Assembly: GCA_038064915.1 (NCBI GenBank) | Contig: JBBTSB010000010.1 | Coordinates: forward strand, 19,809-83,808 | DNA length: 64,000 nucleotides | Direction: 5' to 3' | Source of the DNA: Patescibacteria group bacterium | GTDB lineage: Bacteria > Patescibacteriota > Minisyncoccia > 2-02-FULL-40-12 > IGHO2-01-FULL-4-A | Shown here: in pieces, positions 17,126 to 62,542 of the stretch | How the letters are laid out: each line of letters opens with the position of its first letter | Numbering within the stretch: position 1 is the stretch's first letter | Translations under genes and position numbers: made by a program | Notes under the pieces: generated by a model | What the model was told of the DNA's origin: nothing | The model's database searches: none | What the model saw: the letters and a program-made list of their open reading frames with translations, nothing else

Positions 17126-17127
17126 TC

Positions 17128-17538
17128 ATGTTACAGCCTAAACGCATAAAACACCGCAAGGTCCATAAGAGCGCCTCCACCTGGAGGAAGGTTGCCAGTC
17201 GTGGATACTACTTGAGTTTCGGAAAGTATGGGCTGAAAGCGCTCGAAGCGGATTGGCTCAAATCTTCTCAGATCGAGGCCGCACGCCGTGCCATTAGTCA
17301 TTCTATCCAGCGTGGTGGTAAACTTTGGATCCGCGTGTTCCCCGACAAACCCCGTACCCAAAAAGGAGCTGAAGTGGGCATGGGTGGTGGCGCCGGATCA
17401 CTGTCGCATTTTGTTGCACCCATTGAAGCGGGAAGAATCTTATTTGAAATGGACGGTGTCGCGGAATCGATTGCTCGTGAAGCGTTTCGTCTTGCGGCGC
17501 ATAAACTGCCGGTAAAAACCAGATTTATAAAGAGATAA
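17128..17538 (+). CDS. rplP: 50S ribosomal protein L16
   Basis: [11 protein letters not shown]…L16 signature. Confidence 0.93.
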
Positions 17539-17539
17539 T

Positions 17540-17722
17540 ATGAAATTTTCTGATATAAAAACCAAAGACCGGTCCGAGTTGGAGGAATTGCTCAAAGAGT
17601 ACCAAGTGAAACTTGGCCAATTGAGCTTTGAGAGAGTTCGTAAAACACTGAAGAAATCCAGCGACGTTGGAAAAACCAGAAAAGTTATTGCACAAATTAA
17701 AACCATCCTCCATGGAATCTAA
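17540..17722 (+). CDS. rpmC: 50S ribosomal protein L29
   Basis: 60-aa helical protein at the L29 position in the operon. Confidence 0.85.
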
Positions 17723-17942
17723 ACCACGCACATTACGAGGTGTTGTCGTATCCGATAAGATGATGAAAACCGTCGTCGTTGCAGTCACGCGTCTCAAAAA
17801 ACATCCCAAGTATTTAAAATACTACAAAGTTACCAAGAAGTTTAAGGCGCACGATGAAGAGAAGAAATACAAAACGGGGGACAAAGTAACTATCCAAGAA
17901 ACACGGCCATTATCGAAAGATAAGCGCTGGAACGTATTATGA
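17712..17942 (+). CDS. rpsQ: 30S ribosomal protein S17
   Basis: Start [17 protein letters not shown] at ATG 17712, overlapping the rpmC stop. Confidence 0.88.
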
Positions 17943-18304
17943 TTCAGCTACGATCCATAGTTCAAGTTGCAGATAATAGCGGGGCCAAGAAGGTTGGCGT
18001 GTTTAAGGTGCTTGGCGGTTCCAAGCGTCGGTATGCCCAGCTTGGTGACATCGTAGTATGTTCCGTCAAGGTCGCTGAGCCGCGCAAGGCCGTAAAGAAA
18101 AAAGATGTCGTGAAGGCTGTCGTGGTACGTCAGAGAAATAATTTTCGTCGCAAAGATGGTAGTTATATCCGATTTGACGAAAATGCCGTTGTGCTTTTGG
18201 ATGGTGTTGAGCCAAAGGGCGGACGTATTTTCGGTCCCATTCCCCGCGAGATCAAAGAACGAGGATTTAATACCATCGCGAGTTTAGCTCAAGAAATTGT
18301 ATGA
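17939..18304 (+). CDS. rplN: 50S ribosomal protein L14
   Basis: [18 protein letters not shown]…. Confidence 0.95.
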
Positions 18305-18600
18305 ACATTCGAAAAGGCGACAACGTCATCATGCTTGCTGGCAAAGACCGAGGAAAGACCGGGAAGGTTTTGTCCGTGCTCGAAGGACGTGTTGTCATTG
18401 AGGGCTTAAACACCATCAAAAAACACCAGCGTGCGAAAAAGCAGGGACAGAAGGGACAGATTATCACGAAAGAGCGTGCGGTGGATCGATCAAACGTACA
18501 GATAGTTTGCCCGAAATGCGGTAAGCCAACCCGTATTGGTCACCAGGTAGTTGGAGATAGAAAAATTAGAATTTGTAAAAAATGCCAAGCAGAATTTTAG
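18301..18600 (+). CDS. rplX: 50S ribosomal protein L24 (C-terminal CxxC…CxxC zinc ribbon)
   Basis: KOW motif plus zinc ribbon. Confidence 0.9.
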
Positions 18601-19094
18601 AAAAATACCGCAAAGAATACGGTCATACAATGAAAGCCCCTCGGATCACCAAAGTAGTGCTCAACGTTGGCGTCGGGAAAATTGCAAAGGATGCGAAGGC
18701 GCTCGAAAAAATAGAGCAGGACCTTGCAAAAATCACCGGACAAAAACCCGCGCTCCGTGCCGCAAAAAAGTCCATTGCAGGATTCAAGGTTCGAGAAGGA
18801 ACCCCATCAGGATACATGGTTACCTTGCGTGGATCGCGAATGTATGATTTTATAGATAGGCTGATTTCGGTAGCATTGCCTAGGAGCCGCGACTTTCAGG
18901 GAATTCCTGAAAGTTCCTTTGATGCGGCAGGTAACCTCAATATAGGCATTAAAGAACATAACATTTTTCCTGAGGTGAGCTATGAGTCTTTAAAAGATAT
19001 TTTCGGTCTTGAGGTAACTATCGTGATCAATGCTGGATCCCGCAAGGAGGGAGTAGTACTACTCCGGTTTCTTGGATTTCCCATAAGAACATAG
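18582..19094 (+). CDS. rplE: 50S ribosomal protein L5
   Basis: L5 signature (…VVLNVGVG…). Confidence 0.92.
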
Positions 19095-19095
19095 C

Positions 19096-19281
19096 ATGGC
19101 AAAAACATCTACTATCGCACGATCCAATAAGAAACCGAAGTTTTCCAGCCGAAAGGTTAATCGGTGTTTCTTGTGCGGCCGCAAACATGGCTACATGAGG
19201 AAGTTTGGATTGTGCCGTATACACTTCAGAGAGCTTGCCACCGACGGCCTGCTCCCCGGAGTTCAAAAATCTTCCTGGTAA
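19096..19281 (+). CDS. rpsZ: 30S ribosomal protein S14 type Z (zinc-binding)
   Basis: 61 aa with CxxC…C…H. Confidence 0.9.
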
Positions 19282-19312
19282 CTAATAACCTAATCAGCTA
19301 ATCACCTTTTCG

Positions 19313-19699
19313 ATGAGTCCACTTGCAAACATGTTAATACAGATCAAGAACGCCCAAATCAGGGGCTTGGAGGAAGTTCTTGTCCCTGCTTCCGGCATGA
19401 AACGTGCCATTGCGATGGTTTTGCAAAAAGAGGGGTTTTTAGCGAACGTGGAAGACATCAAGAAAAAGGGAAAAAAATCAGAACTTCCCTACCTCTCCAT
19501 CACACTCAAGCCTGATGCCATTCACGATGTGCTATTGATTTCAAAACCGTCTCGCCGCATGTACGCGGGGAATGCAGATATGGGCAGGATAAAGAACGGC
19601 TTTGGAACTGCGGTCATTAGCACGCCCAAGGGTATTATGACCAGTACCGATGCCCGCGCCGCAGGTGTGGGCGGAGAAGTTTTATTTGAAATTTGGTAA
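19313..19699 (+). CDS. rpsH: 30S ribosomal protein S8
   Basis: MSPLANMLIQIKNAQ…. Confidence 0.92.
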   Translation: MSPLANMLIQIKNAQIRGLEEVLVPASGMKRAIAMVLQKEGFLANVEDIKKKGKKSELPYLSITLKPDAIHDVLLISKPSRRMYAGNADMGRIKNGFGTAVISTPKGIMTSTDARAAGVGGEVLFEIW

Positions 19700-19700
19700 T

Positions 19701-20234
19701 ATGTCAAAAATCGGCAAAAAACCCATTGCGATTCCCACTGGCGTTGATATAAAAATCGACGGCAATTCGCTTGTTGTCAAAGGCCCTAAGGGGGAGTTAA
19801 AAAAACTTTTTCCTGCAGGAGTTTCGTTTGTTAAAGAAGAAAGTAATTTGAAAGTTGCTGCGGAAAATAGCGCTATCTGGGGTTTGAGCCGAGCGCTTGC
19901 GGCAAACATGGTCACTGGTGTTGCCCAAGGATTTCAAAAAATACTTGAATTTACCGGCGTGGGATACAAAGCACAGGTGAAAGGTGATATGTTAGAACTC
20001 AACCTCGGATTTACTCATCCTATTTCCGTAAAAGCTCCCCCGGCGGTTACTTTTAAGGTAGAAAAGAATGTTATCACCATTGAAGGGCCCGACAAGGAAT
20101 CGGTAGGACATGTTGCCGCAGAGATTCGTTCTCATCGTCCCCCGGAGCCCTACAAGGGAAGTGGTATTAAATATCGAGATGAGGTAATTCGGCGCAAGGC
20201 TGGCAAAAAAGCTGGCGCTACGGCTACAGCATGA
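19701..20234 (+). CDS. rplF: 50S ribosomal protein L6
   Basis: Start MSKIGKKPIAIP at ATG 19701, in frame with ORF 19650..20234. Confidence 0.92.
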   Translation: MSKIGKKPIAIPTGVDIKIDGNSLVVKGPKGELKKLFPAGVSFVKEESNLKVAAENSAIWGLSRALAANMVTGVAQGFQKILEFTGVGYKAQVKGDMLELNLGFTHPISVKAPPAVTFKVEKNVITIEGPDKESVGHVAAEIRSHRPPEPYKGSGIKYRDEVIRRKAGKKAGATATA

Positions 20235-20533
20235 GAATTCAACGCCACAACAGAATTCGCGCAAGACTTCAGGGCACGTCGGAGCGCCCGCGCGTTGCGG
20301 TTTTTCGGAGCAACCAGTATATTTCTGCGCAGATTATTGATGACAGCGCTCACAAAACACTTGCAAGTGCAAAGGGGCCAAAAGCCAAGCCCGATGCTGT
20401 TGCGCAGGAATTGGCAAAGAAGGCGGTTGCCGCTGGTATTTCAAAGGTGGTATTTGATCGCGGTGGACACAAGTATCACGGGGGCGTAAAGGCGCTGGCG
20501 GAAGGTTTGCGTAAAGGAGGTCTTCAACTATGA
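20231..20533 (+). CDS. rplR: 50S ribosomal protein L18
   Basis: L18 signature. Confidence 0.9.
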   Translation: MRIQRHNRIRARLQGTSERPRVAVFRSNQYISAQIIDDSAHKTLASAKGPKAKPDAVAQELAKKAVAAGISKVVFDRGGHKYHGGVKALAEGLRKGGLQL

Positions 20534-21072
20534 ACAATCCGAACAACAACAGTAGATTTCAAAAAACAGACAATCGTCGTGGGGGAAAGTTTAATCGTCC
20601 GCCAAAGGAAAAGTCGGAGTTTGATTCCCGCATGCTTGATCTTGCTCGTGTTGCTCGTGTCACCAAGGGAGGAAAGCGATTCAGTTTCCGTGCTACCATG
20701 GTGGTAGGTGATGGGAAGGGACGAGTTGGCGTAGGCGTTGCTCAGGGCCATGACGTACAGCAAGCAATGGAAAAATCCACCCAGAACGCCAAGAAGCGCC
20801 TCTTGCGTGTTGTTATCGTGAAAGGAACTATTCCTCACCAGGTAACATTCAAATATCACAGCGCCGTAGTTATGATAAAGCCATCCCCCATGGGCAGTGG
20901 AGTAAAAGCAGGCGGCCCCGTCCGTGTGATCGCAAAGCTCGCAGGAATCAGCAATATTACCGCAAAGCTTATCGAGCGAACAGGCAATAAGATTAACATT
21001 GCACGAGCGACCATTGGGGCGCTTGGGCAATTGAAACAACATGCAACTTCACCATCTCAAGCCAATTCATAA
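20530..21072 (+). CDS. rpsE: 30S ribosomal protein S5
   Basis: S5 dsRBD and C-terminal domain. Confidence 0.93.
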
Positions 21073-24344: not shown

Positions 24345-24414
24345 ATAAATAGTTGTGCCTGCTAAACCGACGCAACGAAGCGTTGTTTTGGCAAGCTTAA
24401 GAAAGGAGTTCGGC

Positions 24415-25236
24415 ATGAGCCGGCTCACCGAGGGCATTGATGGCCGCATGATTGAGGCAGCCAAAACGCTTTCCGCACAGGGCGGAACCCTGGAAGACCT
24501 CGAGGTGCTCAAGAACCCCGAGGCCAATCCCCGTGCTGTCACTGTGGCACGGGCCGTCTTGCGTGAGCTCCGTGGAGAGGTGCTCGCGCCCATTCCGCTC
24601 TCGCCGCCGCAGATCGTCCCGGGCGCCAAGAACTTCATAAACTTCGACCTCTCGGCTTTCATGGTGAGCTGGACGAAGTTCTACGGGCGGATTTTCCAGA
24701 TCACGCTCGATCCGGCTTCCGTGCTGTTGCCGCCCCTTGAGCTCGCGCTCGGGAGCGGCCTCATCCGTCATCCCGACGTCACTATCGAGAAGGTGCTCTC
24801 GGCGTGGAAGAAGAACACGCCCAAGGAGCTCCTCTACCGCTACACGGAGAGCGATCTGGACGCTGCGATTCAAAAGGAGAAGGAGTCGTGGCGCCCGAGC
24901 GGTACCTACGTCGCCTGGGCGTATCCGGCGATCGAGGCTACGGACCAGGCGCCCGAGCTCGCCGAGAAGTCCTACGAGGACATCCAGGCAATGCCCGGGG
25001 TCTGGGTCATGAACTATCCCGAGCTGCCGCTCTACGCGCTCTGGCACTACGTGGAGACCGGAGTGCCGCTAGATCAGAAGACCGTCTCGCTCTCGGACTC
25101 ACTCGATGCGGCTGGCCGCGCGCTCGGCGGCAGCTGGCACGGCGACGGGTTCTGCGTCCACTGGTGCCACCGGCGCGGCTCGCACCCGAGCATCCGCGCT
25201 CGCAGGATCGTTCTCCCGCAGCCGAAGGCTGCGTAA
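24415..25236 (+). CDS. DGR target protein (273 aa), GC-rich, with the variable region in its C-terminal ~35 residues (…GGSWHGDGFCVHWCHRRGSHPSIRARR…), C-type-lectin/FGE-like VR-fold expected
   Basis: AAGGAG SD 7 nt upstream of ATG 24415. The 3' 106 nt equal the TR except at TR-adenine positions. Confidence 0.75.
   Translation: MSRLTEGIDGRMIEAAKTLSAQGGTLEDLEVLKNPEANPRAVTVARAVLRELRGEVLAPIPLSPPQIVPGAKNFINFDLSAFMVSWTKFYGRIFQITLDPASVLLPPLELALGSGLIRHPDVTIEKVLSAWKKNTPKELLYRYTESDLDAAIQKEKESWRPSGTYVAWAYPAIEATDQAPELAEKSYEDIQAMPGVWVMNYPELPLYALWHYVETGVPLDQKTVSLSDSLDAAGRALGGSWHGDGFCVHWCHRRGSHPSIRARRIVLPQPKAA
25111..25216 (+). repeat. DGR variable region (VR)
   Basis: 106-nt alignment to 25495..25600 with 22 mismatches, every one at a template adenine; the identical 3' block CATCCGCGCTCGCAGG is IMH-like. 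Confidence 0.8.
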
Positions 25237-25241
25237 CGCTT
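25225..25241 (+). other. hairpin CGCAGCC-GAA-GGCTGCG immediately 3' of the VR (DGR target-recognition stem-loop analog)
   Basis: perfect 7-bp stem with 3-nt loop, 9 nt after the VR end. Confidence 0.5.
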
Positions 25242-25265
25242 CTCGCTCTTCTCTCGTTCACTCGG

Positions 25266-25310
25266 ACTCCGGCAGCTTGCTGCTGGAGTCCGATTTCTTT
25301 TTTGGTATAC
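25266..25310 (+). terminator. Rho-independent terminator of target gene (CGGACTCC…GGAGTCCG + TTTCTTTTTT)
   Basis: 8-bp stem plus T-run. Confidence 0.6.
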
Positions 25311-25494
25311 TTACCCCGGGCTCATACAATCGGTCTTGTTCGCCGTTTGGCGAGACGGATAGCGATTTGCCCTATCAAAGGAGAACTACGTGCCCTTTTT
25401 TGGAGAAGAAGAGCTTCCTAAAAAATCTACTGCAATGGCAGCATACTCATAATTCTTTTTGAATGATGAGCGGCAAGGATGAGATGGGGCACTT

Positions 25495-25600
25495 ACTCGA
25501 TGCGGATGGCAACGCGCTCAACAGCAACTGGAACGACGACAAGTTCTACGTCAACTGGTACAACCAGCGCAACTCGAACCCGAACATCCGCGCTCGCAGG
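25495..25600 (+). repeat. DGR template region (TR), Asn-codon (AAC) rich
   Basis: See VR. It is followed at 25606..25645 by the hairpin CAACAGGCTCCT-TCAT-AGGAGTCTGTTG plus T7. Confidence 0.8.
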
Positions 25601-25620
25601 TAGACTCCCAACAGGCTCCT

Positions 25621-25962
25621 TCATAGGAGTCTGTTGTTTTTTTGGAATGATCCGATCCAGCCATTTGTTTCTTTTGAGATTTCTTGAAGTTCTTCTTCAA
25701 ATGCTTGATATAGACTTAGTCCGATAATATCCAGTTCTTGCATGAGCCGTACCATGCGTTTTAGTATTTCTATATTGGTGCGTAGGTCTTTCAGTGTAGG
25801 GACCTTTTCAATACCAGTTTGAAATCGTGCCTTGATCGCAAGTGCAATTGCATCCAATATAAGCGCATCAAGTTTTGAATAAATTCCGTGCCGATCCTGC
25901 TTTGATATTTTCGTGCGGAGGCGATAAAATTTCTTGTAAAACTCAAACAAATGATAAATCAA
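25621..25962 (-). CDS. avd: accessory variability determinant (Avd)-like four-helix-bundle protein, opposite strand to TR/RT
   Basis: 113 aa, basic. The C-terminal …LQEISKETNGWIGSF and central …RHGIYSKLDALILDAIA… segments resemble the Avd / 23S-IVS four-helix-bundle family. TTG start. Confidence 0.55.
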   Translation of the reverse strand: MIYHLFEFYKKFYRLRTKISKQDRHGIYSKLDALILDAIALAIKARFQTGIEKVPTLKDLRTNIEILKRMVRLMQELDIIGLSLYQAFEEELQEISKETNGWIGSFQKNNRLL

Positions 25963-25963
25963 G

Positions 25964-26914
25964 GTGACAGGTCGTTGGGGGGGGGGTCGCTATAGGAGTA
26001 TTCATGATTTGGCAAATTTATTTCTCGCCTGGCGGGAATTCCGGCGCGGCAAGCGACAGAAACCGGATGTTCAAGCATTTGAGTTTGATCTGGAGGATAA
26101 CCTATTTGAGCTTCACGAGCAACTCGTATCAAAAACATATTCGCACCAGCCGTACGAATCATTTTTTGTAACAGATCCAAAGCTTCGACATATCCATAAG
26201 GCCACCGTGCGAGATCGCGTCTTGCACCAGGCGGTGTTCCATGTGCTCTATCCGATCTTTGATCATACATTTATCTACGACTCCTATTCCTGTCGCATTG
26301 GCAAAGGGACTCACATTGCCGTTAATCGTCTCAAAGAATTTTGCCGCAAAGCTAGTTGCAACAATTCACGAAACATCTTCGCTCTCAAATGCGATATCCG
26401 CAAGTTCTTCGATTCGGTAGATCATGAAATTTTGATTGATTTGATAAAGCAGAGCGTTGTTGATCCCGATGTGCTTTGGCTCATAAAATTGATTCTCGAT
26501 AGTTTTCCCAAGGGCCTACCTTTGGGCAACGTCACGAGTCAATTATTTGCAAATATCTATTTGAATGAGCTTGATCAGTTTGCTAAGCATACGCTCAAGG
26601 CAAAGTATTACCTGCGCTACTGCGATGATTTTGTGTTACTCAACCCAGATCAGTCGACCCTTCTAGTAATTCGCAATTTTTTAGAGAATAACCTCAAACT
26701 GCAGCTTCATCCCAACAAAATCATCCTTCGTACCTACCGCCAGGGGATTGATTTTCTCGGCTACGTCGTGCGGCCGTACTGTCGAACCTTGCGGACGAAG
26801 ACAAAGAAGCGAATTTTTAAGAATATTTCAGAGAAAAATCTCGCATCGTACCTTGGTGTTCTCGATCATTGCGACGGATATGCCATTCGCCAAAAGCTCT
26901 TTGATTTGGTATGA
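25964..26914 (+). CDS. DGR reverse transcriptase
   Basis: RT motifs including LPLGNVTSQLFANIYL (DGR-type IGxxxSQ) and YCDDFVLL (YxDD). N-terminus alignable to Bordetella Brt. GTG start; G10 tract at 25977-25986. Confidence 0.85.
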   Translation: MTGRWGGGRYRSIHDLANLFLAWREFRRGKRQKPDVQAFEFDLEDNLFELHEQLVSKTYSHQPYESFFVTDPKLRHIHKATVRDRVLHQAVFHVLYPIFDHTFIYDSYSCRIGKGTHIAVNRLKEFCRKASCNNSRNIFALKCDIRKFFDSVDHEILIDLIKQSVVDPDVLWLIKLILDSFPKGLPLGNVTSQLFANIYLNELDQFAKHTLKAKYYLRYCDDFVLLNPDQSTLLVIRNFLENNLKLQLHPNKIILRTYRQGIDFLGYVVRPYCRTLRTKTKKRIFKNISEKNLASYLGVLDHCDGYAIRQKLFDLV

Positions 26915-26921: not shown

Positions 26922-27629
26922 ATGTATCTTTCTGTCATTATTCCCGCTTACAACGAAGAAAAACGCATCGGCAAGACGCTCGAAGCAATTCGAGAATATT
27001 TGAGCGAGCAAAGTTATGAGTGGGAAGTCATTGTAGTAAATAATAATTCAAATGATGCTACAAGCGAAATTGCAGAAAAATATCAGGTTCACGTCATTGA
27101 CGAAAAGCGACCAGGAAAAGGATATGCAGTCACGACCGGAATGCTTGAGGCAAAGGGTGATCTCCGACTTTTCACTGATGCTGATAATTCAACGAGCATT
27201 GATCATCTTGACCTCATGATTCCGTATATGCAAAATTACGATGTGGCGATTGGCTCTCTTGCAGTACCTGGAGCGAAGGTTGTGCAGGGAGGCGAAGAGC
27301 CATGGTATCGTGTTATCATGGGTAAGCTGGGCAATAAATGGATTCAGCTATTCGCGGTATGGGGGATCCATGACACGCAACGTGGATTCAAGTTATTTAA
27401 GGCGCAAGCCGTAGAAAAGATCTTTCCCAAGCTCACAATCTTTGGCTGGGGATTTGATGTAGAAGTTTTGGCTTTAGCACGCAAGTTTGGTTTTACCATA
27501 AAAGAAATACCTGTCACGTGGGACAACGATCCCAATTCCAAAGTAACCGTTTGGGCATATCCGCAAGTACTTTTGCAAACACTTAACGTGAGATGGAACC
27601 TGTTAACGAATAAATATGGATCCCGTTAG
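26922..27629 (+). CDS. GT2 family glycosyltransferase (DPM1/polyprenyl-phosphate sugar synthase-like)
   Basis: MYLSVIIPAYNEEKRIG… DxD context; start at ATG 26922, 8 nt after the RT stop. Confidence 0.8.
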   Translation: MYLSVIIPAYNEEKRIGKTLEAIREYLSEQSYEWEVIVVNNNSNDATSEIAEKYQVHVIDEKRPGKGYAVTTGMLEAKGDLRLFTDADNSTSIDHLDLMIPYMQNYDVAIGSLAVPGAKVVQGGEEPWYRVIMGKLGNKWIQLFAVWGIHDTQRGFKLFKAQAVEKIFPKLTIFGWGFDVEVLALARKFGFTIKEIPVTWDNDPNSKVTVWAYPQVLLQTLNVRWNLLTNKYGSR

Positions 27630-27697
27630 AAGCAGCCCTAACGGGTTATAATCTACGCTAAACTATTACTATGACTTATACTGCTTCTAACGGGATG
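27619..27697 (+). promoter_or_regulatory. conserved cis element copy A: hairpin CCCGTTAGAAG…CTAACGGG plus distal CTTCTAACGGG abutting the galT ATG
   Basis: A near-identical arrangement is found at 61382..61462. Confidence 0.5.
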
Positions 27698-28687
27698 GAA
27701 AGTGAATTTAGAAGAGAAATCGTTTCCGGAGATTGGGTATTGATCGCGGCGGGACGAGGAATGCGTCCGCACGCGGTAAAGCCGCGCGAGAGCAATTATC
27801 AAAGTCCCGCTGACTGTCCCTTTGAAGACCCTCAAAAATCAGGCAACAGTGAAGCAGTCATGGTTGTTCCCGAGGGGTCAAACGAGTGGCGCATCCAGGT
27901 CGTCAAAAACAAATATCCTGCCGTTGTGCCGGGAGCGTGCGGGCCGATTATGGAGCGAGAAGGATTTGAAGTTACCGCAGGAGTGGGATTCCATGAAATT
28001 ATCGTCATGCGCGACCACGACAAATTTTTTCCTTCGTTTTCACCGGAGGAGACAGCTCAAGTTCTGCAAGTGTATCGCGATCGCTACCGCCAGATTGCTC
28101 TCGAGCCTTGCGGTCAGTACATTATGATTTTTCACAACTATGGTCATCGCGGCGGAGCCAGTGTGTACCACCCACATTCACAAATCATTTCCGTGCCGAT
28201 CATTCCTCCTGATGTCATGCGAAGCGTCAAGGGATCTTATGATTACTTTAAAAAAAACGGACGTGAAGCACATGCCGTTATGGTGGAGTATGAACTTGCG
28301 AACAAAAAACGGATTCTCTTTGAAAATGAGCAGTTTGTAGCCTTTTGTCCCTTCGTTTCCAAACAGCCCTACGAAATGCGCATCTATCCAAAATTTTCCA
28401 GTGCACATTTTGATCACATAGAAGATCAGAGCCTTGTGCCGCTAGGCGAGGCTCTGAACACGGTACTCAAAAAAATGCGTGACGCTCTTGATGATCCGGC
28501 ATATAACTTTTTCATCCATACGGCGCCGCTTCACTTTGAACACTCAGATCTTTCCTTTGACCAGTACTATCGATGGCACATAGAAGTCATTCCACGTGTG
28601 AGCTTTGATGCCGGGTTTGAGGCAGGGACGGGAATTAAAATAAATATTATAGATCCGGATGTTGCCGCGCAAACGCTCAATGGGTAA
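27695..28687 (+). CDS. galT: galactose-1-phosphate uridylyltransferase (HIT family)
   Basis: HPHSQI HxHxQ motif and Zn-binding Cys/His N-terminus. ORF track start is 27671; ATG 27695 is preferred by analogy with element copy B. Confidence 0.8.
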   Translation: MESEFRREIVSGDWVLIAAGRGMRPHAVKPRESNYQSPADCPFEDPQKSGNSEAVMVVPEGSNEWRIQVVKNKYPAVVPGACGPIMEREGFEVTAGVGFHEIIVMRDHDKFFPSFSPEETAQVLQVYRDRYRQIALEPCGQYIMIFHNYGHRGGASVYHPHSQIISVPIIPPDVMRSVKGSYDYFKKNGREAHAVMVEYELANKKRILFENEQFVAFCPFVSKQPYEMRIYPKFSSAHFDHIEDQSLVPLGEALNTVLKKMRDALDDPAYNFFIHTAPLHFEHSDLSFDQYYRWHIEVIPRVSFDAGFEAGTGIKINIIDPDVAAQTLNG

Positions 28688-34314: not shown

Positions 34315-34319
34315 TGAAG

Positions 34320-34727
34320 CTTGGTATATCTGTAAGCCGAATTCTGTATTTGTGTGATCATTCATCTTGCCCGGCTGTTGCCAGACGGATCCTTGCGGCA
34401 CCCCCGCACAAATGCGTTAGCTTTTGGCGGGTACGGCCTTGCACCAGGCAGGGTTTAGCGCACTCCCATGTCGCCATGGGGTGATTCCGTTCGGAACCTT
34501 TTCACCCGCGGTCAGCCGTCTGGCTGACTCGGAATGGTCTCTGTGCCACTCACCGCTACGCGCTCGCGCTCTAGCGGGACCCCGCAGTTATGCGGTGGTT
34601 TCCCTAAGTTTTCACTCGGTGGTCGTTAGCCACTGCCTATACCAAGGTTTAACCTTGGTAGTGTTCGGACTTTCCTCGCTCCCCCGACAGAATCGTCGGG
34701 GCCCGCGCGATCACCCGATATACCAAG
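34320..34727 (-). ncRNA. rnpB: RNase P RNA, bacterial type A
   Basis: Read on the minus strand. P1 GGTATATC…GATATACC; P3 CCCCGAC-GATTCT-GTCGGGG; CR-I GAGCGAGGAAAGTCCGAAC; CR-V ACAGAATTCGGCTTACA. GC-rich with no credible ORF. Confidence 0.8.
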
Positions 34728-42799: not shown

Positions 42800-42871
42800 G
42801 CGGGTGTGGTTCAATGGTAGAACACGACCTTCCCAAGGTTGAGACGTGGGTCCGATTCCCATCACCCGCTC
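42800..42871 (+). tRNA. tRNA-Gly (anticodon CCC)
   Basis: Cloverleaf GCGGGTG acceptor / CACCCGC; D-arm GTTC..GAAC; anticodon stem CGACC/GGTTG with loop TTCCCAA; T-arm GTGGG-TCCGATT-CCCAT; no encoded CCA. Confidence 0.8.
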
Positions 42872-53185: not shown

Positions 53186-53692
53186 ATGAAGAAAAACATC
53201 TTATTTGTCCTTATATTAGTGGTTATTATTCTCGGAGGGGCGTTTGTCGTGTGGAACAATAGACAGTCCGCTCAACCGAACCCTTCTCCGTCAAGTAGTG
53301 CTATCGCACCGACGCCCTCTCCCAGCGGGGCGGACATTACCCAGTTTACGAAACCGGCCAGCTGTCAGCTTTCCGGATCCATTGATTTTTTGCAAAAAAA
53401 TATCTTTCGTTCCAACGACGCTCTGTTCCGATATCAGGGCATTGACAATGAGGCGCGTTTGATCACCTGGACGGTCAGTCCAACCGATGAGTTTTCGATC
53501 GGCCCGAACATTTTTGCAAACCTTGATATTCCGGACGGCAGTCGTTCGCTTACGATTTCTCTTCCCGCCGAACCAAAAGCTCGCCAGTATACATTGACCG
53601 CTCGTATCTCCTATGGTCGCTGGGTCAATAACACCGTCGTTGTAAAAGAAGCACGATGCTCCGGTTCAATCCCCGTATATCTTCGCTATTAG
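53186..53692 (+). CDS. small secreted/membrane-anchored hypothetical protein (169 aa)
   Basis: ATG 53186 within ORF 53108..53692; signal peptide MKKNILFVLILVVIILGGAFVVW. Confidence 0.5.
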   Translation: MKKNILFVLILVVIILGGAFVVWNNRQSAQPNPSPSSSAIAPTPSPSGADITQFTKPASCQLSGSIDFLQKNIFRSNDALFRYQGIDNEARLITWTVSPTDEFSIGPNIFANLDIPDGSRSLTISLPAEPKARQYTLTARISYGRWVNNTVVVKEARCSGSIPVYLRY

Positions 53693-55455
53693 CGCTCTCT
53701 GCAAGCCTCATACTATCATTTGCGCTGTTTGGCAACGGCATAAAAGGAGATTATGTTTTTGACGACAAAATAGTCATTCTGGGCAATCCGCATTTGGAAG
53801 AGCGTCCGCCGAGTCTTATAGACATCTTTAGCGATTCCTACCATGCATACCAGCCGACGACCGGTTTGTATCGGCCGCTGACGATCGCAAGCTTTGCACT
53901 GAACACGTATATGTTCGGAACGTCGCCGGTGAGTTTTCATGTGTTCAATATCATCCTCCACGCTCTTGTGGGGTTCATGATCTATGTAATCGTCGGAAGT
54001 CTTGCCGATATGCGCACGGCCGTGGTAAGCGCGCTCCTGTTTCTGTTCCTTCCCATCCATGTCGAAGATGTTACGTCCTTGGTGGGTCGCGCGGAGCTTT
54101 TGGCGCTTTTGTTTTCGCTTGTAGCGCTGTATGCGGTCATGCGCGGAAAGTATCATTGGGGGGCGCTGGCGTTTCTTTTGGGGCTTTTCAGCAAGGAATC
54201 CGCGATCGCATTCATTCCGATTTGGCTTTCCTGGGAATATTTTTTCAACAAACAAACGATTCGCACAATCCTCAAGCGATTTTTGATTATGCTTCCTGCA
54301 ATCAGTATATATGCGGTGCTCCGTTATCTAGCTTTGGGGAAATATGTTCTTGCCAACGATGCCACGGCCGTCTACAATCCGCTCAAATTTGCTCCTTTTT
54401 TTGATACACTGTGGACCAGCGGCAAAATCGCTTTTCTCTATATTCAAAAAATGTTGGTGCCCACGGTTTTTTCTTCGGATTATTCGTTCAACCAGATTCC
54501 CGTCGTCCACAATCCCTTTAGCTCCTGGCAGGCCCTGCTCGGATTGACGATACTCGCGGGACTTGTGTGGATTGCCGTAAAAAAGCGGCGTTCGCTTGTT
54601 GGATGGTCTGCCGTAGTGTTTCTTGCTTTTTATTTCATCATATCAAATCTTATTTTCAAAACCGGTACCATCATGGCGGAGCGTTTGGTATATGCCGCAT
54701 CGCTTGGTCTGGTGATGTTATTGGCGCTGTGTATAGAGCATCTCCGAAAAAAAATCGGTCATGAAAAGGTCATCTATGGCGCTTTGACAATTATGTTGAT
54801 TTTCTATGGATACAAAACTATCAATCGCAATTCTGTTTGGATCAGCGAGGAACGGCTTTTTGCGTCTGCCGTTGTCGTGGCTCCGGAGAGTGTTGTGAAC
54901 CGCACCAACCTTGCCTATCTTCGCTATGTCCAAAAAGATCTTGAGGGCGCAAAGACGGAAAGCGAAGGAGTGTTGGCTATCGCTCCCGACCATGTGCCCG
55001 CTCTCAACCTGGCCGCGCAATCAAACAAAAAGCTTGGCAACCCCAAGGTTGCAGAAGATTACTGGAAGCGTGCCATTGAGCTCCGTCCAGATTATGTCCG
55101 CGGATATTTGGGATTGGGTGTGTTATACTACGAAAATGGTCACTTTCCGGACGCAGAGCTCATTCTTACCAAGGCGGTAAATATTTTCCCGCGCTGGAGT
55201 GAGGTGCTGTTTCTCTCGCTGACCAAAACGGCGCTAAAGAAATACGATGAGGCGATTGCGATTGTTATTCAGCACTTCGGAGAAGATCCGGAGCGACCGG
55301 ACCTCATCTTTGCTCTCGGCGTAGCCTACTACAAAAAAGGCGACCGCGAGCATGCCATGAAGTACCTGCGCAAGGTCCAAAATCCCAACCTTACCCAAGA
55401 GCAATTTTTACAAACCATTGAAAAAAACACTATTTTTCTCATTACTGATCTGTAG
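53656..55455 (+). CDS. TMTC/PMT_2-like GT-C glycosyltransferase with TPR (paralog 3)
   Basis: VFDDKIV, GLYRPL, TPR tail; very similar to paralog 5. Confidence 0.75.
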   Translation: MLRFNPRISSLLALSASLILSFALFGNGIKGDYVFDDKIVILGNPHLEERPPSLIDIFSDSYHAYQPTTGLYRPLTIASFALNTYMFGTSPVSFHVFNIILHALVGFMIYVIVGSLADMRTAVVSALLFLFLPIHVEDVTSLVGRAELLALLFSLVALYAVMRGKYHWGALAFLLGLFSKESAIAFIPIWLSWEYFFNKQTIRTILKRFLIMLPAISIYAVLRYLALGKYVLANDATAVYNPLKFAPFFDTLWTSGKIAFLYIQKMLVPTVFSSDYSFNQIPVVHNPFSSWQALLGLTILAGLVWIAVKKRRSLVGWSAVVFLAFYFIISNLIFKTGTIMAERLVYAASLGLVMLLALCIEHLRKKIGHEKVIYGALTIMLIFYGYKTINRNSVWISEERLFASAVVVAPESVVNRTNLAYLRYVQKDLEGAKTESEGVLAIAPDHVPALNLAAQSNKKLGNPKVAEDYWKRAIELRPDYVRGYLGLGVLYYENGHFPDAELILTKAVNIFPRWSEVLFLSLTKTALKKYDEAIAIVIQHFGEDPERPDLIFALGVAYYKKGDREHAMKYLRKVQNPNLTQEQFLQTIEKNTIFLITDL

Positions 55456-57064
55456 TGCGATTGTAGCGATCTACGCGCAAACGCTGAAGTTTGATTTTGT
55501 GTCCCTGGACGAGGAGGATCACCTTGCCAACCGCCAGTATTTTCTCTCATCAGTAAAAAATATTCCGGAAGCTTTTCAGCACAACACCTACTATCCCAAT
55601 GGAACATCGCAATACTACCGGCCCCTGCACACGATTTCCTTTATGCTCGATGCGATCGGCGACATCACTCCGTCAAAATCCCACGCCATCAACATCGTTC
55701 TCCACATGGGTGCGGCGTTGCTGCTGTTTTGGTTCATGCGGGAGCTGGGGATTGGAAAAACGGCTTCATTTTTTCTCGCACTGCTCTTCGCGGTACACCC
55801 GATCGGCAGTCGAATCGTGGGATGGGTGCCGGGGCGGAATGACGCCACGTTTGCTATATTTGCGATAGCCTCGTGTATCGCGTATCTCCGATGGGTGGCT
55901 CATCCCGAGCGCTGGTGGCTCATGGCGGTGCACCTGGTGCTGTTTTTTGCAGCTTTCTTGAGCAAGGAATTGGGCATCGTTTTGCCTATTCTGTACGTGC
56001 TCATGCCTCGCAATTATGTTGTATCTCGAAAACACGTTGGTCTGGTGGCCGGCGGTTGGATTCTTATCGTCATTTTCTGGTGGCTCATGAGATCCGAAGC
56101 ACTTGCGGGAACGGTTGTTACCGCGTGGAACGATTTGTTGCTGGGACTTTTTCCCAATACCGTTGCCATTCCTTTCTATCTCCAGATTTCTTCGTTGCCG
56201 CTCCATCCGTCCGTTATGCCGACGATGCAGGATGCGCTTCATTGGCTACCCATTGTCGTCAGCGGAGCTTTTATTGCCATACTCATCGTGCTTGGGAAGC
56301 GATTTCAACCCCGCAGTAATTTGCTTCTCTTTGGTATTGCCTGGTTTCTCCTATTTCTTCTTCCTTCTCTTGCGGGGTATGGATCGGATATCCGTCTGGT
56401 GCTATTTGAACACCGAGCCTATGTTCCGCTCATGGGACTGCTGTTTATTGCCGCCGCTTTTCCCTGGGGCCGCATGATTCCTTTCTCCCGTTCCCGTCGC
56501 TTCATCCTTGCGGGAGCTGTAGTTGCCGTGTATGGTGTTTTTGCCTTTTTGGGAACTCGTGATTTTCGGGATGCTTTGACATTTTGGGAAAAAGCAGTAG
56601 CGCAAGCGCCCGACTACGCCGGATCACATAAAGGGCTGGGAACGGTGTATGTCAACAGAGGACGTTTTGATGATGCCGTGAACGAGTTTCAAAAAGCGCT
56701 CGAACTGAATCCGACAGAAAAACGCGTACACAACAACCTCGGCATTATTTACCTGAACCAACGGCGGGTGCAGGAGGCGGAAATGGAATTTCTCTCGGAG
56801 CTTGACGTAAACCCCGGCTATGCGATCACCTACAACAACCTCGGGTTTGTGTACGCCACGCAGAAGCGATTTGCAGACGCGGAAAAAGCATGGCTTACGG
56901 CGCTGGTGTTCGATCCCTGGTATGCCGCTCCGCACCAGGGCCTGGCTATTATCTATGCCATTGCAAACAATAAAGAGCAGTCCTTGGCCCACATTGAGGC
57001 GCTCGTGAAGCTTGGTGCCCCGCTTTCTCCGGATATACAGAAGATCTATGAAAGTTACCGGTAG
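55418..57064 (+). CDS. TMTC/PMT_2-like GT-C glycosyltransferase with TPR (paralog 4)
   Basis: SLDEED, QYYRPL, TPR tail. Confidence 0.75.
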   Translation: MKKTLFFSLLICSAIVAIYAQTLKFDFVSLDEEDHLANRQYFLSSVKNIPEAFQHNTYYPNGTSQYYRPLHTISFMLDAIGDITPSKSHAINIVLHMGAALLLFWFMRELGIGKTASFFLALLFAVHPIGSRIVGWVPGRNDATFAIFAIASCIAYLRWVAHPERWWLMAVHLVLFFAAFLSKELGIVLPILYVLMPRNYVVSRKHVGLVAGGWILIVIFWWLMRSEALAGTVVTAWNDLLLGLFPNTVAIPFYLQISSLPLHPSVMPTMQDALHWLPIVVSGAFIAILIVLGKRFQPRSNLLLFGIAWFLLFLLPSLAGYGSDIRLVLFEHRAYVPLMGLLFIAAAFPWGRMIPFSRSRRFILAGAVVAVYGVFAFLGTRDFRDALTFWEKAVAQAPDYAGSHKGLGTVYVNRGRFDDAVNEFQKALELNPTEKRVHNNLGIIYLNQRRVQEAEMEFLSELDVNPGYAITYNNLGFVYATQKRFADAEKAWLTALVFDPWYAAPHQGLAIIYAIANNKEQSLAHIEALVKLGAPLSPDIQKIYESYR

Positions 57065-58805
57065 CAAGTATCTCTTGGTGGGTTTGGCTGTTTCGTTTGC
57101 GCTTTTCAGCAACGGAATACGGGGAGACTTTGTTTTTGATGACGCGATCGTCATTGTTGGCAATCCCATTATTGAGCGGGGGATTTCCGGGGTGGTTGAG
57201 GCCTTCCGGTCACCCTACCACGCTTACCAACCCAAGACAGGCCTTTATCGTCCGCTTACGATTTTTTCTTATTCGCTGAATTACGCTATATTCGGCACTT
57301 CACCGGTGAGCTTTCATGTGGTTAACATTGTTCTGCATGGGCTCGTTGGGTTTTTTATTTTCTTGGTCCTTCAACAGATTGGTGGCAAGCGCGCGGCTAT
57401 TCTTGGCATGTTGCTGTTCCTCGCGTTTCCCATTCATGTCGAGGACGTGACGTCTATCGTAGGCCGTGCTGAACTCCTCGCCCTGCTGTTTGTTCTTGCG
57501 GCTTTGTATAGTGCCATGCGACATCGGTACATCCTTGCATCCTGTATGTTTTTGCTCGGCATCTTGAGTAAAGAATCCGCGATCGTATTTTTGCCAATGT
57601 GGCTTGCGTGGGAATACTTCTTTAACAAACAAACGATTCGCACCATCCTCAAGCGATTTTTGATTATGATTCTTGCAATAAGTATGTATGCGGTGCTCCG
57701 CTATCTGGCACTGGGGGAATATTTTCTCGCCAACGATGCCACTCCCACGTACAACGCTCTCAAATTCGCTACCATTCCCCAAACCCTATGGACATCAGGG
57801 AAGATTTTTTTTCTGTATCTGCAAAAAACGTTGTTCCCGACGGTTTTTTCGCCCGACTATTCGCTTTTCCAGATACCGTTGCTCAACAGTCCTCTGGCGT
57901 CATGGGAGTCGATCGTGGGAATAGTGCTACTTGTCGGCTGTATCGTGATTGCATGGCGAAATCGGCGTTCTCCCTTGGGGTGGTTTGTTCTATTCTTTTT
58001 GAGTTCCTACTTTATTATTTCCAATCTTGTTTTCAAAACCGGCACAATCATGGCCGAGCGCATTCTGTATCCAGCCACCTTTGGCCTTGCGGCGATGACT
58101 GCGTATGGCATCGAGTGGTTGAGACAGAAATGGGGGCATGAGAAGGTGATCTATGCGAGTGTAACTCTTCTACTCCTTTTCTATGGCTTCAAAACAATCC
58201 AGCACAACCGTGACTGGATCAGCGAAACTAATCTTTTTCAACGAGCCTATGCTTCCGCGCCGTTGAGTATTCCCAATAGGGTAAACCATGCATATTTGGC
58301 GTATCGAGATAACAACTATGCGCGTGCTGTTGATGAACTGGAAGCGACGTTGACCGTTGTGCCCGATCATGTCCCCGCCTTGCATCTTGCGGGGCAAGCA
58401 TATAAAAAAATGGGCAACGTGGGTAAGGCAGAGGAGTATTGGAAAAAAGCAGTTGCATTGCAACCCGACTATCTTGCCGCTTACCTTGGTCTGGGAATGC
58501 TGTATTATGAGCAGGGGCATTTTGCGTCCGCGGAGGCGGCGCTTGATGACGCGGTGGCCGTCTTTCCTCGTTCTAGCGAAGTCGCCTATCTTTCATTGGC
58601 AAAGACCGGTCTCAAAAAATATGACGAAGCGATTTCGATTGTGGAGAACTATTTTGGAAAAAATCCCGGCCAGGTTGAATTGCGTCTTGCTCTTGGCATC
58701 GCCTGGTACAAAAAGGGCGACAAGGAGCGGGCATCGGAATACATCAGCGCTGATTATTTTCCCACGATTGAGAAAAATTCGATCTTTCGAATCATTGACC
58801 TATAG
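57048..58805 (+). CDS. TMTC/PMT_2-like GT-C glycosyltransferase with TPR (paralog 5)
   Basis: ATG 57048 within ORF 57012..58805; VFDDAIV, GLYRPL; long identical stretches with paralog 3 (for example KQTIRTILKRFLIM). Confidence 0.75.
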   Translation: MKVTGSKYLLVGLAVSFALFSNGIRGDFVFDDAIVIVGNPIIERGISGVVEAFRSPYHAYQPKTGLYRPLTIFSYSLNYAIFGTSPVSFHVVNIVLHGLVGFFIFLVLQQIGGKRAAILGMLLFLAFPIHVEDVTSIVGRAELLALLFVLAALYSAMRHRYILASCMFLLGILSKESAIVFLPMWLAWEYFFNKQTIRTILKRFLIMILAISMYAVLRYLALGEYFLANDATPTYNALKFATIPQTLWTSGKIFFLYLQKTLFPTVFSPDYSLFQIPLLNSPLASWESIVGIVLLVGCIVIAWRNRRSPLGWFVLFFLSSYFIISNLVFKTGTIMAERILYPATFGLAAMTAYGIEWLRQKWGHEKVIYASVTLLLLFYGFKTIQHNRDWISETNLFQRAYASAPLSIPNRVNHAYLAYRDNNYARAVDELEATLTVVPDHVPALHLAGQAYKKMGNVGKAEEYWKKAVALQPDYLAAYLGLGMLYYEQGHFASAEAALDDAVAVFPRSSEVAYLSLAKTGLKKYDEAISIVENYFGKNPGQVELRLALGIAWYKKGDKERASEYISADYFPTIEKNSIFRIIDL

Positions 58806-59751: not shown

Positions 59752-60738
59752 ATGCGCGTTCTTATTCTTACCACGGAATACCTTCCCAAAATTGGTGGTT
59801 CTGAACTGGCAATTAAGAATCTTACCAAGCGATTGCCCCAGGTGCAGTTTACTATTATTTCTGGAGGATGGAAGTGGCTTTTGCCAATTATTGGCTTTCT
59901 TCGTGCGCTTCGCTATGATTTTGATATCATTCACGTATTTCAGGCGTCGTATGCAGGAGGCGCTGGAGTGTTGTTAAAGTTATTTCACCCCAAAACCCCA
60001 TTCATCGTTTCTCTTCAGGAAGGCAAGCAACTTGAGAAGCAAAGTTTTTTTGTCAGATTTTTTCGTTCCGTTATTCTTCGGAACGCCGATGTGATAACCG
60101 CGATCAGCAGTCACTTGCTGAACTATGCAAATAGTATCAACCCCAAAGCCGCTCGTGTTTTGCTTCCCAACGGAGTGGACGTGCGCAATTTTTCTCATAC
60201 CGGTTCCGAATATATCGTGACTTCATCTCGATTAGTTGAAAAAAATGGCATCGACACGCTTATTCAAGCCATGGTATTCTTGCCAGGGGAGCGGCTCCAT
60301 ATCATCGGCGATGGACCGATGCGCAAACAGCTTGAATCATTGGCAAAGCGACTTGGTGTTGCAGATCGCGTGCGATTCATAGGCGCGGTCCTATATGATG
60401 ATTTGCCTCCCCACCTCGCTTCCGCTTCCGTTTTCGTTCGCCCTTCTCGATCAGAGGGCTTGGGTATTGCGTTTTTGGATGCTATGGCTGCCGGCGTTCC
60501 CATTGTGGGGACACCGGTTGGCGGTATTCCTGATTTTTTGAAAGATCGTGAAACGGGGCTTTTTTGCAAGCCAGAAGATCCGCAATCGGTGGCACATGCT
60601 GTCCGAGAAATTATTGAAAACAACGAGTTGAGAAAAAACATAACCGATCGAGCGAGAAGTTTGGTTGAGGAAAAATACAATTGGGACATGTTAGCCAAAA
60701 AATACTATGAAATTATCCGTCATTATTCCCGTATATAA
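59752..60738 (+). CDS. GT4 family glycosyltransferase
   Basis: Start [16 protein letters not shown] (ATG 59752); [21 protein letters not shown] motif; divergent from 58800..59717. Confidence 0.8.
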
Positions 60739-61381
60739 CGAGCGCAAAACGCTTGGCCATGTTATCAGCGCCGTCAAATCGGTTCTCTTGGATGTGGAAA
60801 AAGAAATCATCATCGTCAATGACGGATCCACTGACGGTCCTGTACCGGAAGCGACCATTACATTTGAACAGAATCGGGGCAAGGGAGCAGCTCTGCGTGC
60901 AGGATTTGCAAAAGCGACCGGTGACATCATCCTCATTCAAGATGGTGATTTGGAATATGATCCGCGTGAATACCAGTCGTTGATCCAACCCATTCTGGAT
61001 GGCAAGGCCGATGTTGTCTATGGATCAAGACTTGTTACACATCACCCGCATCGTGTACTTTACAATCACCACTATCTGGCGAACAAATTTCTAACCTCGT
61101 TTTCTAATCTTTTTTCCAACCTCAATCTTTCCGATATGGAGACATGCTACAAAGTTTTTTCCAGATCAGCTTTGGATGATATCAAGCCGTGTTTAACGGC
61201 GAATCGCTTTGGAATAGAGATAGAACTGACGGCGCAGATCTCCAAGCACCATCTGCGCGTATATGAAGTCGGTATTTCCTATAGCGGGCGTACGTATGAA
61301 GAAGGAAAAAAAATAGGATGGAAGGATGGTGTGGCAGCGCTCTGGCACATCATTCGATATAACGTATTCCGCCGTTCATGA
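60707..61381 (+). CDS. GT2 family glycosyltransferase (polyprenyl-phosphate glycosyltransferase-like)
   Basis: [12 protein letters not shown]…DGDLEYDP. Confidence 0.8.
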
Positions 61382-61462
61382 ATCCCGTTAGAAGTTGCCC
61401 TAACGGGTTACAAACCACACAATGTCGAATATCAACATTACCATACAACTTCTAACGGGATG
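61382..61462 (+). promoter_or_regulatory. conserved cis element copy B (CCCGTTAGAAG…CTAACGGG … CTTCTAACGGG-ATG)
   Basis: See copy A at 27619..27697. Confidence 0.5.
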
Positions 61463-62542
61463 AAAAAAATCCTCATTGCAACCGGCATCTTTCCTCCGGA
61501 TATTGGCGGGCCTGCGACGTATGCAAAACTCCTGGCGGATCATTTTGGCGATGACGTTCATGTCATGACATACACGGCTGGTTTGCGAAAAATTCCCTGG
61601 CCGTTGCGGCAAGTGATATTTTTTTTCCGCCTTTGGCGAGCAAGTCGGGACGTCGACGTAATATACTCGTTGAGTCCTCTGGGCACGGGTATTGCGGCAG
61701 CTTTACTAGGTAAGCCATTTGTAGTTCGTGTTGCGGGGGATCGTGCCTGGGAGGATGCGGTGAACAGAGGAAAAACTCAATTGTTGTTGGATGATTTTCA
61801 GAATCTCAAAAAACGTGGCCGTAAGCATCGTCTGCAAGTTTGGGTGTGCCTCAAAGCCAAGAGGGTCGTCGTTCCGTCATCCTATCTTGCTGGCATAGTG
61901 GTTGGTTGGGGGATACCCAGAGAAAAAATCACTATCGTCGCCAACTCCGCCGACTTAGTGGTTCAACCACTAAGTAAAGAAGAAGCCCGGAAAGAACTTG
62001 GGCTTCAGGGCAACGTGATTATCTCGGTCGGGCGCCTTGTTCCCTGGAAGGGGTTTCGCATGCTCATCAAGATTGTGCCGCAATTTTTGGAAATCAATCC
62101 CTTTTTTCGGTTGGTGATTGTCGGCGACGGCCCGGATCGGACATTACTGGAGACGATGATACACAATTTGAACCTTCAGAAAAAAGTTCACCTCGTGGGG
62201 AAAAAATCGCATGAAGAACTCATTCGCTACCTGCAAGCATCAGAAATCATGATTCTCAACAGCGGCTATGAAGGATTTTCGCATCAACTTCTCGAGGCAA
62301 TGATGATCGGAGTTCCTGTCATTGCCTCGAACATGGGTGGAAACCGTGAACTCGTTCGGCAGGGCGAAAATGGTTTTATGGTAAAGTACAATGACGAGTT
62401 CAACTTGGTCGAGGCAGTAAAAACCTTGTGGGCCAGTCCTGAGCTTCGCACAAAATTTACTGTCGAAGGCAAAAAAACCGCCGCACAGTACACTCCGGAG
62501 CGCACTGTGCGTGAGACGAAAGCCGTACTTGATACGATATGA
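61460..62542 (+). CDS. GT4 family glycosyltransferase
   Basis: GYEGFSHQLLEAMMIGVPVIASNMGG motif. Confidence 0.85.
   Translation: MKKILIATGIFPPDIGGPATYAKLLADHFGDDVHVMTYTAGLRKIPWPLRQVIFFFRLWRASRDVDVIYSLSPLGTGIAAALLGKPFVVRVAGDRAWEDAVNRGKTQLLLDDFQNLKKRGRKHRLQVWVCLKAKRVVVPSSYLAGIVVGWGIPREKITIVANSADLVVQPLSKEEARKELGLQGNVIISVGRLVPWKGFRMLIKIVPQFLEINPFFRLVIVGDGPDRTLLETMIHNLNLQKKVHLVGKKSHEELIRYLQASEIMILNSGYEGFSHQLLEAMMIGVPVIASNMGGNRELVRQGENGFMVKYNDEFNLVEAVKTLWASPELRTKFTVEGKKTAAQYTPERTVRETKAVLDTI

Follow-up and report, generated by a model that had tools for sequence, protein, structure and literature searches.

A probable MITE-like mobile element on the start codon of a glycosyltransferase gene in a Patescibacteria genome

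The 78 bp at positions 61383..61460 (+) of the window, the 64,000-nucleotide stretch of DNA from a Hainich groundwater 0.1-µm metagenome that was analysed here, are very probably a copy of a non-autonomous, MITE-like transposable element belonging to a superfamily with the termini T/C-CCCGTTAGAAG...CTTCTAACGGG-A/G in CPR bacteria (Patescibacteria, Yanofskybacteria-like). This superfamily is apparently new and undescribed so far, and a literature search returned no published description of these termini or of MITEs in CPR. A preliminary description had interpreted this sequence as one of two copies of a dedicated functional RNA in front of two sugar genes. The observation behind that interpretation is real, but the sequence belongs to a mobile element and is no dedicated regulator of the GT4 and GalT-like genes; an element of this kind, read in isolation, mimics a regulatory RNA.

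The two window copies and their empty sites

The copy described here (copy B, 'B-type' subfamily, termini T...A) lies between a GT2 glycosyltransferase gene upstream (60707..61381 (+)) and a GT4 glycosyltransferase gene downstream (61460..62542 (+)). All three arms of the preliminary description are present, with arm1, CCCGTTAGAAG, at 61384-61394, arm2, CTAACGGG, at 61400-61407, and arm3, CTTCTAACGGG, at 61449-61459, and the motif does abut the start codon, as the ORF 61460-62542 begins one base after arm3. Arm1 and the distal arm are the two terminal inverted repeats (TIR) of the element, the left one, TCCCGTTAGAAGTTG, occupying 61383..61397 (+) and the right one, CAACTTCTAACGGGA, 61446..61460 (+), each including the corresponding arm; arm2 (61400..61407 (+)) is an internal third copy of the terminal 8-mer. 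The complete junction, 61378-61470, reads ATGAA-T-CCCGTTAGAAG-TTGC-CCTAACGGG-...-CAA-CTTCTAACGGG-A-TGAAAAA. On either side of the element stands a TGAA target-site duplication (TSD), at 61379..61382 (+) and 61461..61464 (+). The TGA of the left duplication preserves the stop codon of the GT2 gene, which ends at the same codon position as its empty-site orthologue, and the last base of the element, 61460, is the A of the GT4 start codon, which together with the duplicated TG restores the ATG (ATG AA...); the GT4 N-terminus, MKKILIATGIFPPDIGG, matches its orthologues from this ATG on. A leftover ATG stands at the left flank, its A being the native base 61378 and its TG that of the left duplication. 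Inside the element, a mini-ORF at 61422..61463 (+) reads ATG TCG AAT ATC AAC ATT ACC ATA CAA CTT CTA ACG GGA TGA.

The 11-mer and its reverse complement occur four times in the window (27622, 27684, 61384 and 61449), two per copy, where 0.84 occurrences are expected and none of 100 shuffles reached four, and the 8-mer CTAACGGG occurs six times versus 1.25 expected; no degenerate further copies above chance were found in the window. The second copy that had been reported (copy A, 'A-type' subfamily) is indeed there with the same arrangement and identical arms. It covers 75 bp at 27621..27695 (+), with arms spanning 27622-27694, an ATG at 27695 and TGGA duplications at 27617-27620 and 27696-27699, and has a GT2 gene on one side and a GalT/DUF4921-like gene on the other. 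Its interior differs from that of copy B, as had also been noted, and the two copies share arms and not interiors because they belong to two subfamilies, each with an interior that is conserved within the subfamily across genomes: A-type interiors recur in L003, L051 and L073, and B-type interiors in L011, L017, L020, L032, L035, L048 and L053.

Orthologous loci provide the sites in their unoccupied state. In two relatives (L075 and L076, whose GT4 orthologue is 67% identical), the GT4-GT2-GT4 synteny is kept, the element is absent, and the TGA of the GT2 gene overlaps the ATG of the GT4 gene. Their junction, ...CGCCATTTATGAAAACA, is what the window would read after removal of the element and one TGAA; in L075 the empty site is ...CCATTT ATGA AAACA, and the overlap, ...TTCCGCCATTTATGAAAACAATT, can be set beside the window with 61383-61464 removed, ...TTCCGCCGTTCATGAAAAAAATC. 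At the locus of copy A, the empty site in L077 (orthologue 85% identical), ...AATAAATATGGAAAGTGAATTT, is the window minus the element exactly, and L078 and L079 are likewise without the element, so that presence/absence polymorphism with an exact empty site is seen for copy B (L075/L076) as well as copy A (L077, L078 and L079). Because these exact empty sites lie in orthologous loci, both window copies are insertions into stop/start overlaps. Neither flanking protein was altered in length or N-terminus by the insertion. An origin of both copies in an ancient duplication of a GT2 gene plus its spacer was also considered and is ruled out by the separate empty sites and the different subfamilies. 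In another Hainich well (L073), an independent A-type copy occupies the start of a GT4 homologue, here with a TPR gene upstream.

Several features of the surrounding sequence were recorded alongside the two copies. In another relative (L071 2111-2479 and L072 2096-2464), a 122-aa 23S_rRNA_IVP gene (PF05635) replaces the element at the same GT2-GT4 junction, and since this gene sits there, the boundary appears to have been struck by different insertions. Upstream of the glycosyltransferase cluster, at 53656-58805, lie three successive ORFs of ~550-600 aa, called TPR/PMT_2-like on L001, two of which (53656-55455 and 57012-58805) have in common a 300-nt repeat, 77% identical, and look like tandem paralogues. 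Just upstream of copy A's GT2 gene is a diversity-generating retroelement (24355-26914), with a reverse transcriptase encoded at 25964-26914 (RVT_1, E = 7.5e-19), a template repeat at 25491-25600, and a variable repeat at 25097-25206, at the 3' end of the ORF 24355-25236; every mismatch between template and variable repeat is an A in the template. The window also holds a bacterial class A RNase P RNA (34317-34726 (-), 143.9 bits) and a tRNA-Gly(CCC) gene (42800-42871 (+)). As for the GalT/DUF4921-like gene behind copy A (338 aa, P0121), its NCBI start is the element-internal ATG (window 27671-27697), 8 codons upstream of 27695, and the ATG at 27695 is the one that aligns with the start of the orthologues; the internal ATG at 27671 is in frame with it.

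Copies, target sites and orientation in CPR genomes

A scan with the left-end pattern CCCGTTAGAAGNNNNCCTAACGGG, using one genome per species, yielded 78 copies at 68 loci in 18 genomes, with a maximum of 30 in one genome. The host genomes are CPR/Patescibacteria MAGs (Yanofskybacteria, Paceibacterota, Minisyncoccia and Hainich bins) except for one MAG labelled Pseudomonadota, which is possibly mis-binned. In nearly all copies the layout is the same: 40-95 nt downstream comes a matching right arm, immediately followed by an ATG. The downstream genes are mutually unrelated, their starts reading, for example, like those of an aminoacyl-tRNA synthetase, a GDP-mannose dehydratase, an epimerase and membrane proteins. 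Family sizes range from ~50 to 250 bp, with no transposase gene inside. A metagenome scan by the termini only, TCCCGTTAGAAG-N40-70-CTTCTAACGGGATG, returned at least 120 loci; the matches listed comprise 125 distinct copies in ~80 unrelated interior clusters, and among them the right ATG opens at least 60 codons in 107/125. Both scans together place at least ~200 copies before unrelated genes in many genomes. As only 2 of the 125 listed copies defined by their termini carry arm2, which is absent from the other 123, this arm is a trait of one sub-lineage and does not define the element. No copies were present in the viral contigs that were searched as a possible phage vector.

The same termini also enclose other cargos in the genome loci, including a 48-nt GC-rich type and types of 69, 78, 79 and 120 nt. 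At L032 6962-7070, the termini CCCGTTACAAGTC...GACTTGTAACGGG, with the duplication TTCA, bracket a tRNA-Val(CAC) gene that is complete and includes its CCA (ARAGORN, 6979-7053), and this tRNA may be a cargo of the MITE. Nested insertions were found at L033, L037, L056, L063 and L068 and at L021, L022 and L069, in the form of a 79-nt AT-rich element in the ATGAA of a 114-nt element or a 48-nt GC-rich element in its CTGCGCA (TSD CGCA), and these composites have themselves been copied to several loci. At L052 3513-3570, arm1 and arm2 are present, the right arm is missing and the gene's ATG follows ~55 nt later; this copy looks like a decayed element that lost the start-masking arm.

With the element delimited as T-CCCG...CGGG-A, an exact 4-bp TSD flanks 49 of the 73 complete copies, in addition to three copies with 3 bp and two with 5 bp, and a 4-bp duplication is found in 83/125 copies among the metagenome matches listed. 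The duplicated sequence covaries between the two flanks (TGAA, TGGA, TGCG, TGAG, TTGA, TAAG and TCCA, with CGCA in nested copies). A 6-bp duplication abutting CCCG...CGGG was tried as a different delimitation and rejected, as it fits 17/73 copies versus 49/73 for the model of T...A plus 4 bp. Reconstruction of the target gives the logo A|TGRA, whose information is confined to these five positions. The start codon is cut after its A, and the duplicated TG then follows the element's last base; ATG or GTG stands at the right junction in 66/73 copies. In 69 copies the terminal pair is T-A and in 8 it is C-G, never a mixture of the two; because the last base of the C...G subfamily is G, this subfamily leaves a GTG at the position of the orthologues' ATG. 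At L020 (4776-4860), a B-type copy was inserted one step later (ATG|TCCA), which cost the epimerase-like gene its own ATG at this junction; the ATG inside the element is in frame with the gene and would add 13 residues. It is this targeting of A|TGRA, together with the donation of the start codon's first base, that allows stop/start overlaps to be split with both proteins unchanged.

In 518 kb around the copies, unoccupied ATGRA sites were counted by class: ORFs contain 1,735 of them, 494 lie outside ORFs, and gene-start proxies account for 118. Gene starts make up ~90% of occupied sites versus ~19% of the unoccupied non-ORF ATGRA sites. Within the window, ~22% of genes begin with ATGRA. The copies that carry arm2 have a single orientation relative to the gene (~77:0), despite the symmetric repeats. 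The AT-rich families likewise have one orientation, and the ORF-less GC-rich family inserts both ways (11:2); since it does so, the uniform orientation elsewhere suggests selection rather than mechanism. The leftover left ATG was rejected as a cause of the orientation bias, as it meets an in-frame stop either way (51/52 in sense versus 49/52 inverted).

Regarding the mode of insertion, copy B entered the ATGA where the GT2 stop and the GT4 start overlap, at A|TGAA, and duplicated TGAA; the cut would have been staggered by 4 bp and made by a putative DDE-type transposase acting in trans. A search of 1.4 Mb around the copies for an autonomous element bounded by these termini, or for a multi-copy transposase ORF, found neither, and long-range TIR pairs and multi-copy ORFs were likewise absent from this sequence. 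Unpaired arms were followed up as possible ends of an autonomous partner and proved to be chance near-matches in coding sequence or decayed copies.

Pairing of the repeats, translation and alternative readings

The complementarity of the arms in the RNA is real and longer than the preliminary description had stated, with a predicted 16-bp stem pairing 61382-61397 with 61446-61461 and including the A and U of the AUG. This long stem is the minimum free energy structure (-30.1 kcal/mol, z = -4.8), and the local arm1:arm2 hairpin (8 bp, 8-nt loop) reaches -12.2 kcal/mol alone. The terminal inverted repeat of copy B is 15 bp long, and across 77 copies positions 0-14 are Watson-Crick paired in 86-100%. 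When 18 short copies are aligned, 96.4% of the arm1:arm3 stem is paired, and four of its pairs have changed on both sides (C-G/U-A, U-A/A-U, G-C/A-U and U-A/C-G), giving a covariation score of 0.155 versus 0.073 in shuffled alignments, a value reached in 0/500 shuffles. For the arm1:arm2 helix no double change was detected, the sole variation being six U-A to U-G cells. The claim that structure is conserved without sequence therefore holds for the terminal inverted repeats. If a transposase simply recognised both ends, compensatory upkeep of the inverted repeats would not be the prediction. This covariation may come from selection for pairing, whether in the transcript or in a single-stranded intermediate, or from templated correction of quasi-palindromes during replication, a known mutational process.

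An effect of the element on translation at the RNA level is plausible. Co-transcribed with the operon, its 16-bp stem would mask the GT4 AUG, and GT4 expression would probably be kept by ribosomes terminating at the GT2 stop beside arm1; alternatively, the mini-ORF at 61422-61463, which has 13 codons and a stop overlapping the GT4 ATG (ATGA, -4 spacing), might be translated through arm3, with reinitiation at the overlapping ATGA. Of the three frames through CTTCTAACGGGATGA, one ends at a TAA that lies 4 nt ahead of the ATG, another at the TGA that overlaps it, and the third fuses in frame. An internal ATG-ORF reaching the gene start is present in 64/77 sense copies versus 10/77 copies inverted in silico, and, counted by k-mer cluster, in 32/36 clusters versus ~16 expected from dinucleotide shuffles. 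The independent metagenome set gives 40/77 clusters with an internal ORF among the matches listed (25.4 +/- 3.5 expected, 19 inverted), leaving 37/77 without one, and since about half of the families have no such ORF, ribosome delivery is not general. In B-type interiors, 75-80% of shuffles also yield such an ORF, so that the enrichment is not significant for the B-type alone. In the 114-nt family, the 25-codon ORF is open in 11/13 diverged copies despite the AT-rich sequence, and its peptide drifts. Shine-Dalgarno motifs were seen at few window genes, and most starts, those of the ribosomal protein operon at 13288-21072 included, are preceded by A/T-rich sequence; because the host genes mostly do without this motif, an unstructured start region should matter for initiation.

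These data bear on several other explanations. The preliminary description had proposed a dedicated cis-regulatory RNA switch for the GT4 and GalT-like genes, in which arm1 pairs with either arm2 (start free) or arm3 (start masked) in response to a signal such as sugar or temperature, and such a switch is now highly improbable. The two pairings do exist and are mutually exclusive, the long stem does take in the A and U of the AUG, arm1:arm3 covaries, each of the six arm2 variants replaces A by G and thereby retains a U-G pair in the sense strand, and the orientation relative to the gene is uniform; but the element is missing from orthologous junctions and is bordered by 4-bp duplications, its copies precede many unrelated genes that form no coherent set, ~80 unrelated interiors among the metagenome matches listed leave no conserved interior core, and arm2 is lacking in 123/125 of the listed relatives defined by their termini. 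In addition, the alternative helices do not both covary, arm1:arm2 being without a double change, and because the long stem wins by ~18 kcal/mol at equilibrium, there is no balanced switch. No Rfam family matched above chance, the sole hit being a plant miRNA hairpin at 23.9 bits versus a gathering score of 100. Least credible of these readings is a DNA-level protein site, be it an operator in which a third half-site accompanies the palindrome CCCGTTAG-N8-CTAACGGG, a promoter, or a promoter segment that inverts between the repeats; the empty sites and duplications already explain these repeats. The palindrome is a perfect 8+8, and copy A has a TATAAT just behind arm2, but this TATAAT is not conserved in copy B or other families, consensus scans found no promoter or terminator inside copy A or copy B, and the 48-bp spacer is too short for an invertase, with no flipped alleles among the arm2-bearing copies.

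Movement as single-stranded DNA, by which the element would be an IS200/IS605-derived PATE or an attC-like folded site and not a product of DDE cut-and-paste, is very unlikely. It would fit the subterminal hairpin at the left end, a stem that covaries beyond the conserved 12-nt core as in attC sites, the fixed orientation on an asymmetric target and the lack of any DDE transposase in the sequence around the copies. HUH transposases make no target duplications, and the duplications seen here are true ones that covary with the target; the ends are perfect inverted repeats and not two same-strand hairpins, the core-like order GTTAGAA...TTCTAAC is the reverse of attC RYYYAAC...GTTRRRY, and the GC-rich family inserts in both orientations. 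A reading that keeps the mobile element and adds a host benefit, as a translational coupling or ribosome-delivery module whose upstream ORF (uORF) crosses the right arm and ends in TAA-4nt-ATG, in ATGA or by fusing in frame, deserves more weight, and we hold it as a tentative possibility. [quoted passage not shown] Against it stand the 37/77 families among the matches listed that have no such ORF, the short interiors like that of copy B that give an ORF by chance in most shuffles, peptide sequences that are not conserved and family copies that are not independent.

A more far-reaching proposal, which we consider unlikely, is that the termini TCCCGTTAGAAG/CTTCTAACGGGA define an undescribed start-codon-homing class in CPR, moved by an enzyme that is no recognisable IS transposase, with ends partly recognised as a folded stem, and possibly retained as portable translation-initiation or coupling modules (ribosome delivery by a uORF, start masking) in organisms largely without Shine-Dalgarno sequences. 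If true, it would mean a mobile 5' leader that rebuilds the start codon on which it lands and is able to carry cargo such as a tRNA gene. For the MITE-like element itself, the consequences are practical as well as biological. Repeats on the first base of hundreds of CPR genes mislead start calling, as at the copy A gene, and this mode of insertion offers a mobile element a route to persist in gene-dense genomes of ~1 Mb. Ordinary MITE biology does not account for the strong bias to true gene starts, for the single orientation that AT-rich families share, for the excess of read-through mini-ORFs or for inverted repeats whose pairing is restored by compensatory changes, and these unusual features could inform how translation starts in CPR bacteria with few Shine-Dalgarno sequences.

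Comparison with known mobile repeats

Bacterial MITEs such as the Neisseria Correia elements (CREE), ERIC and RUP are non-coding, multi-copy sequences of ~50-250 bp with TIR and TSD, which show insertion polymorphism and co-transcription with their neighbours, the RNA stem of the Correia repeat being an RNase III substrate (PMC10969869, PMC2229807, PMC2649163). The element described here resembles them in being short, in having no transposase gene, and in its TIR, site-varying TSD, dispersed copies and empty sites. It differs from Correia, ERIC and RUP in that its termini are unrelated in sequence and are common to dozens of unrelated cargos, one of them a tRNA gene, in that its TSD is 4 bp at A|TGRA and not TA, in that ~90% of its copies are placed precisely at a start codon, to which they contribute the first base, in that compensatory changes preserve the complementarity of its repeats, and in that it has no known parent IS.

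Integron attC sites, too, have short, conserved inverted cores, a stem that covaries and a variable centre, lie between ORFs and keep a fixed orientation, whereas here the order of the cores is reversed, there is a true 4-bp TSD, empty sites show a simple 78-bp insertion, and the neighbours are ordinary operon genes with no integrase context. REP/BIME sequences and IS200/IS605-derived PATEs are likewise small, hairpin-forming, intergenic and present in many copies. They have no TSD and no long-range inverted repeats, and PATEs insert 3' of a fixed tetra- or pentanucleotide. The 4-mer here, in contrast to that of PATEs, is duplicated and variable, its left and right copies covary, and the conserved GTAG-type 5' signature is absent. 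The Rickettsia palindromic elements (RPEs) are palindromic mobile repeats tolerated in very small genomes because the genes that they enter stay functional, and they insert in frame within coding sequences and are translated as part of the protein (PMC10969869); the elements here sit instead at the gene boundary.

Finally, MIRUs are described, in the account of PMC12548453 citing Supply et al. 1997, as mobile repeats that enter operons at start codons, carry an ORF coupled to the downstream gene at -4 spacing and have minimal impact on expression. Set beside this description, copy B has the same -4 arrangement, with its ORF at 61422-61463 and the GT4 ATG at 61460, and the superfamily shares the insertion at start codons, with ATG or GTG at 66/73 junctions. 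MIRUs are units of 46-101 bp, often in tandem, that are not known to have long terminal inverted repeats and belong to another phylum. The element here, unlike MIRUs, has both TIR and TSD, and about half of its families carry an internal ORF.
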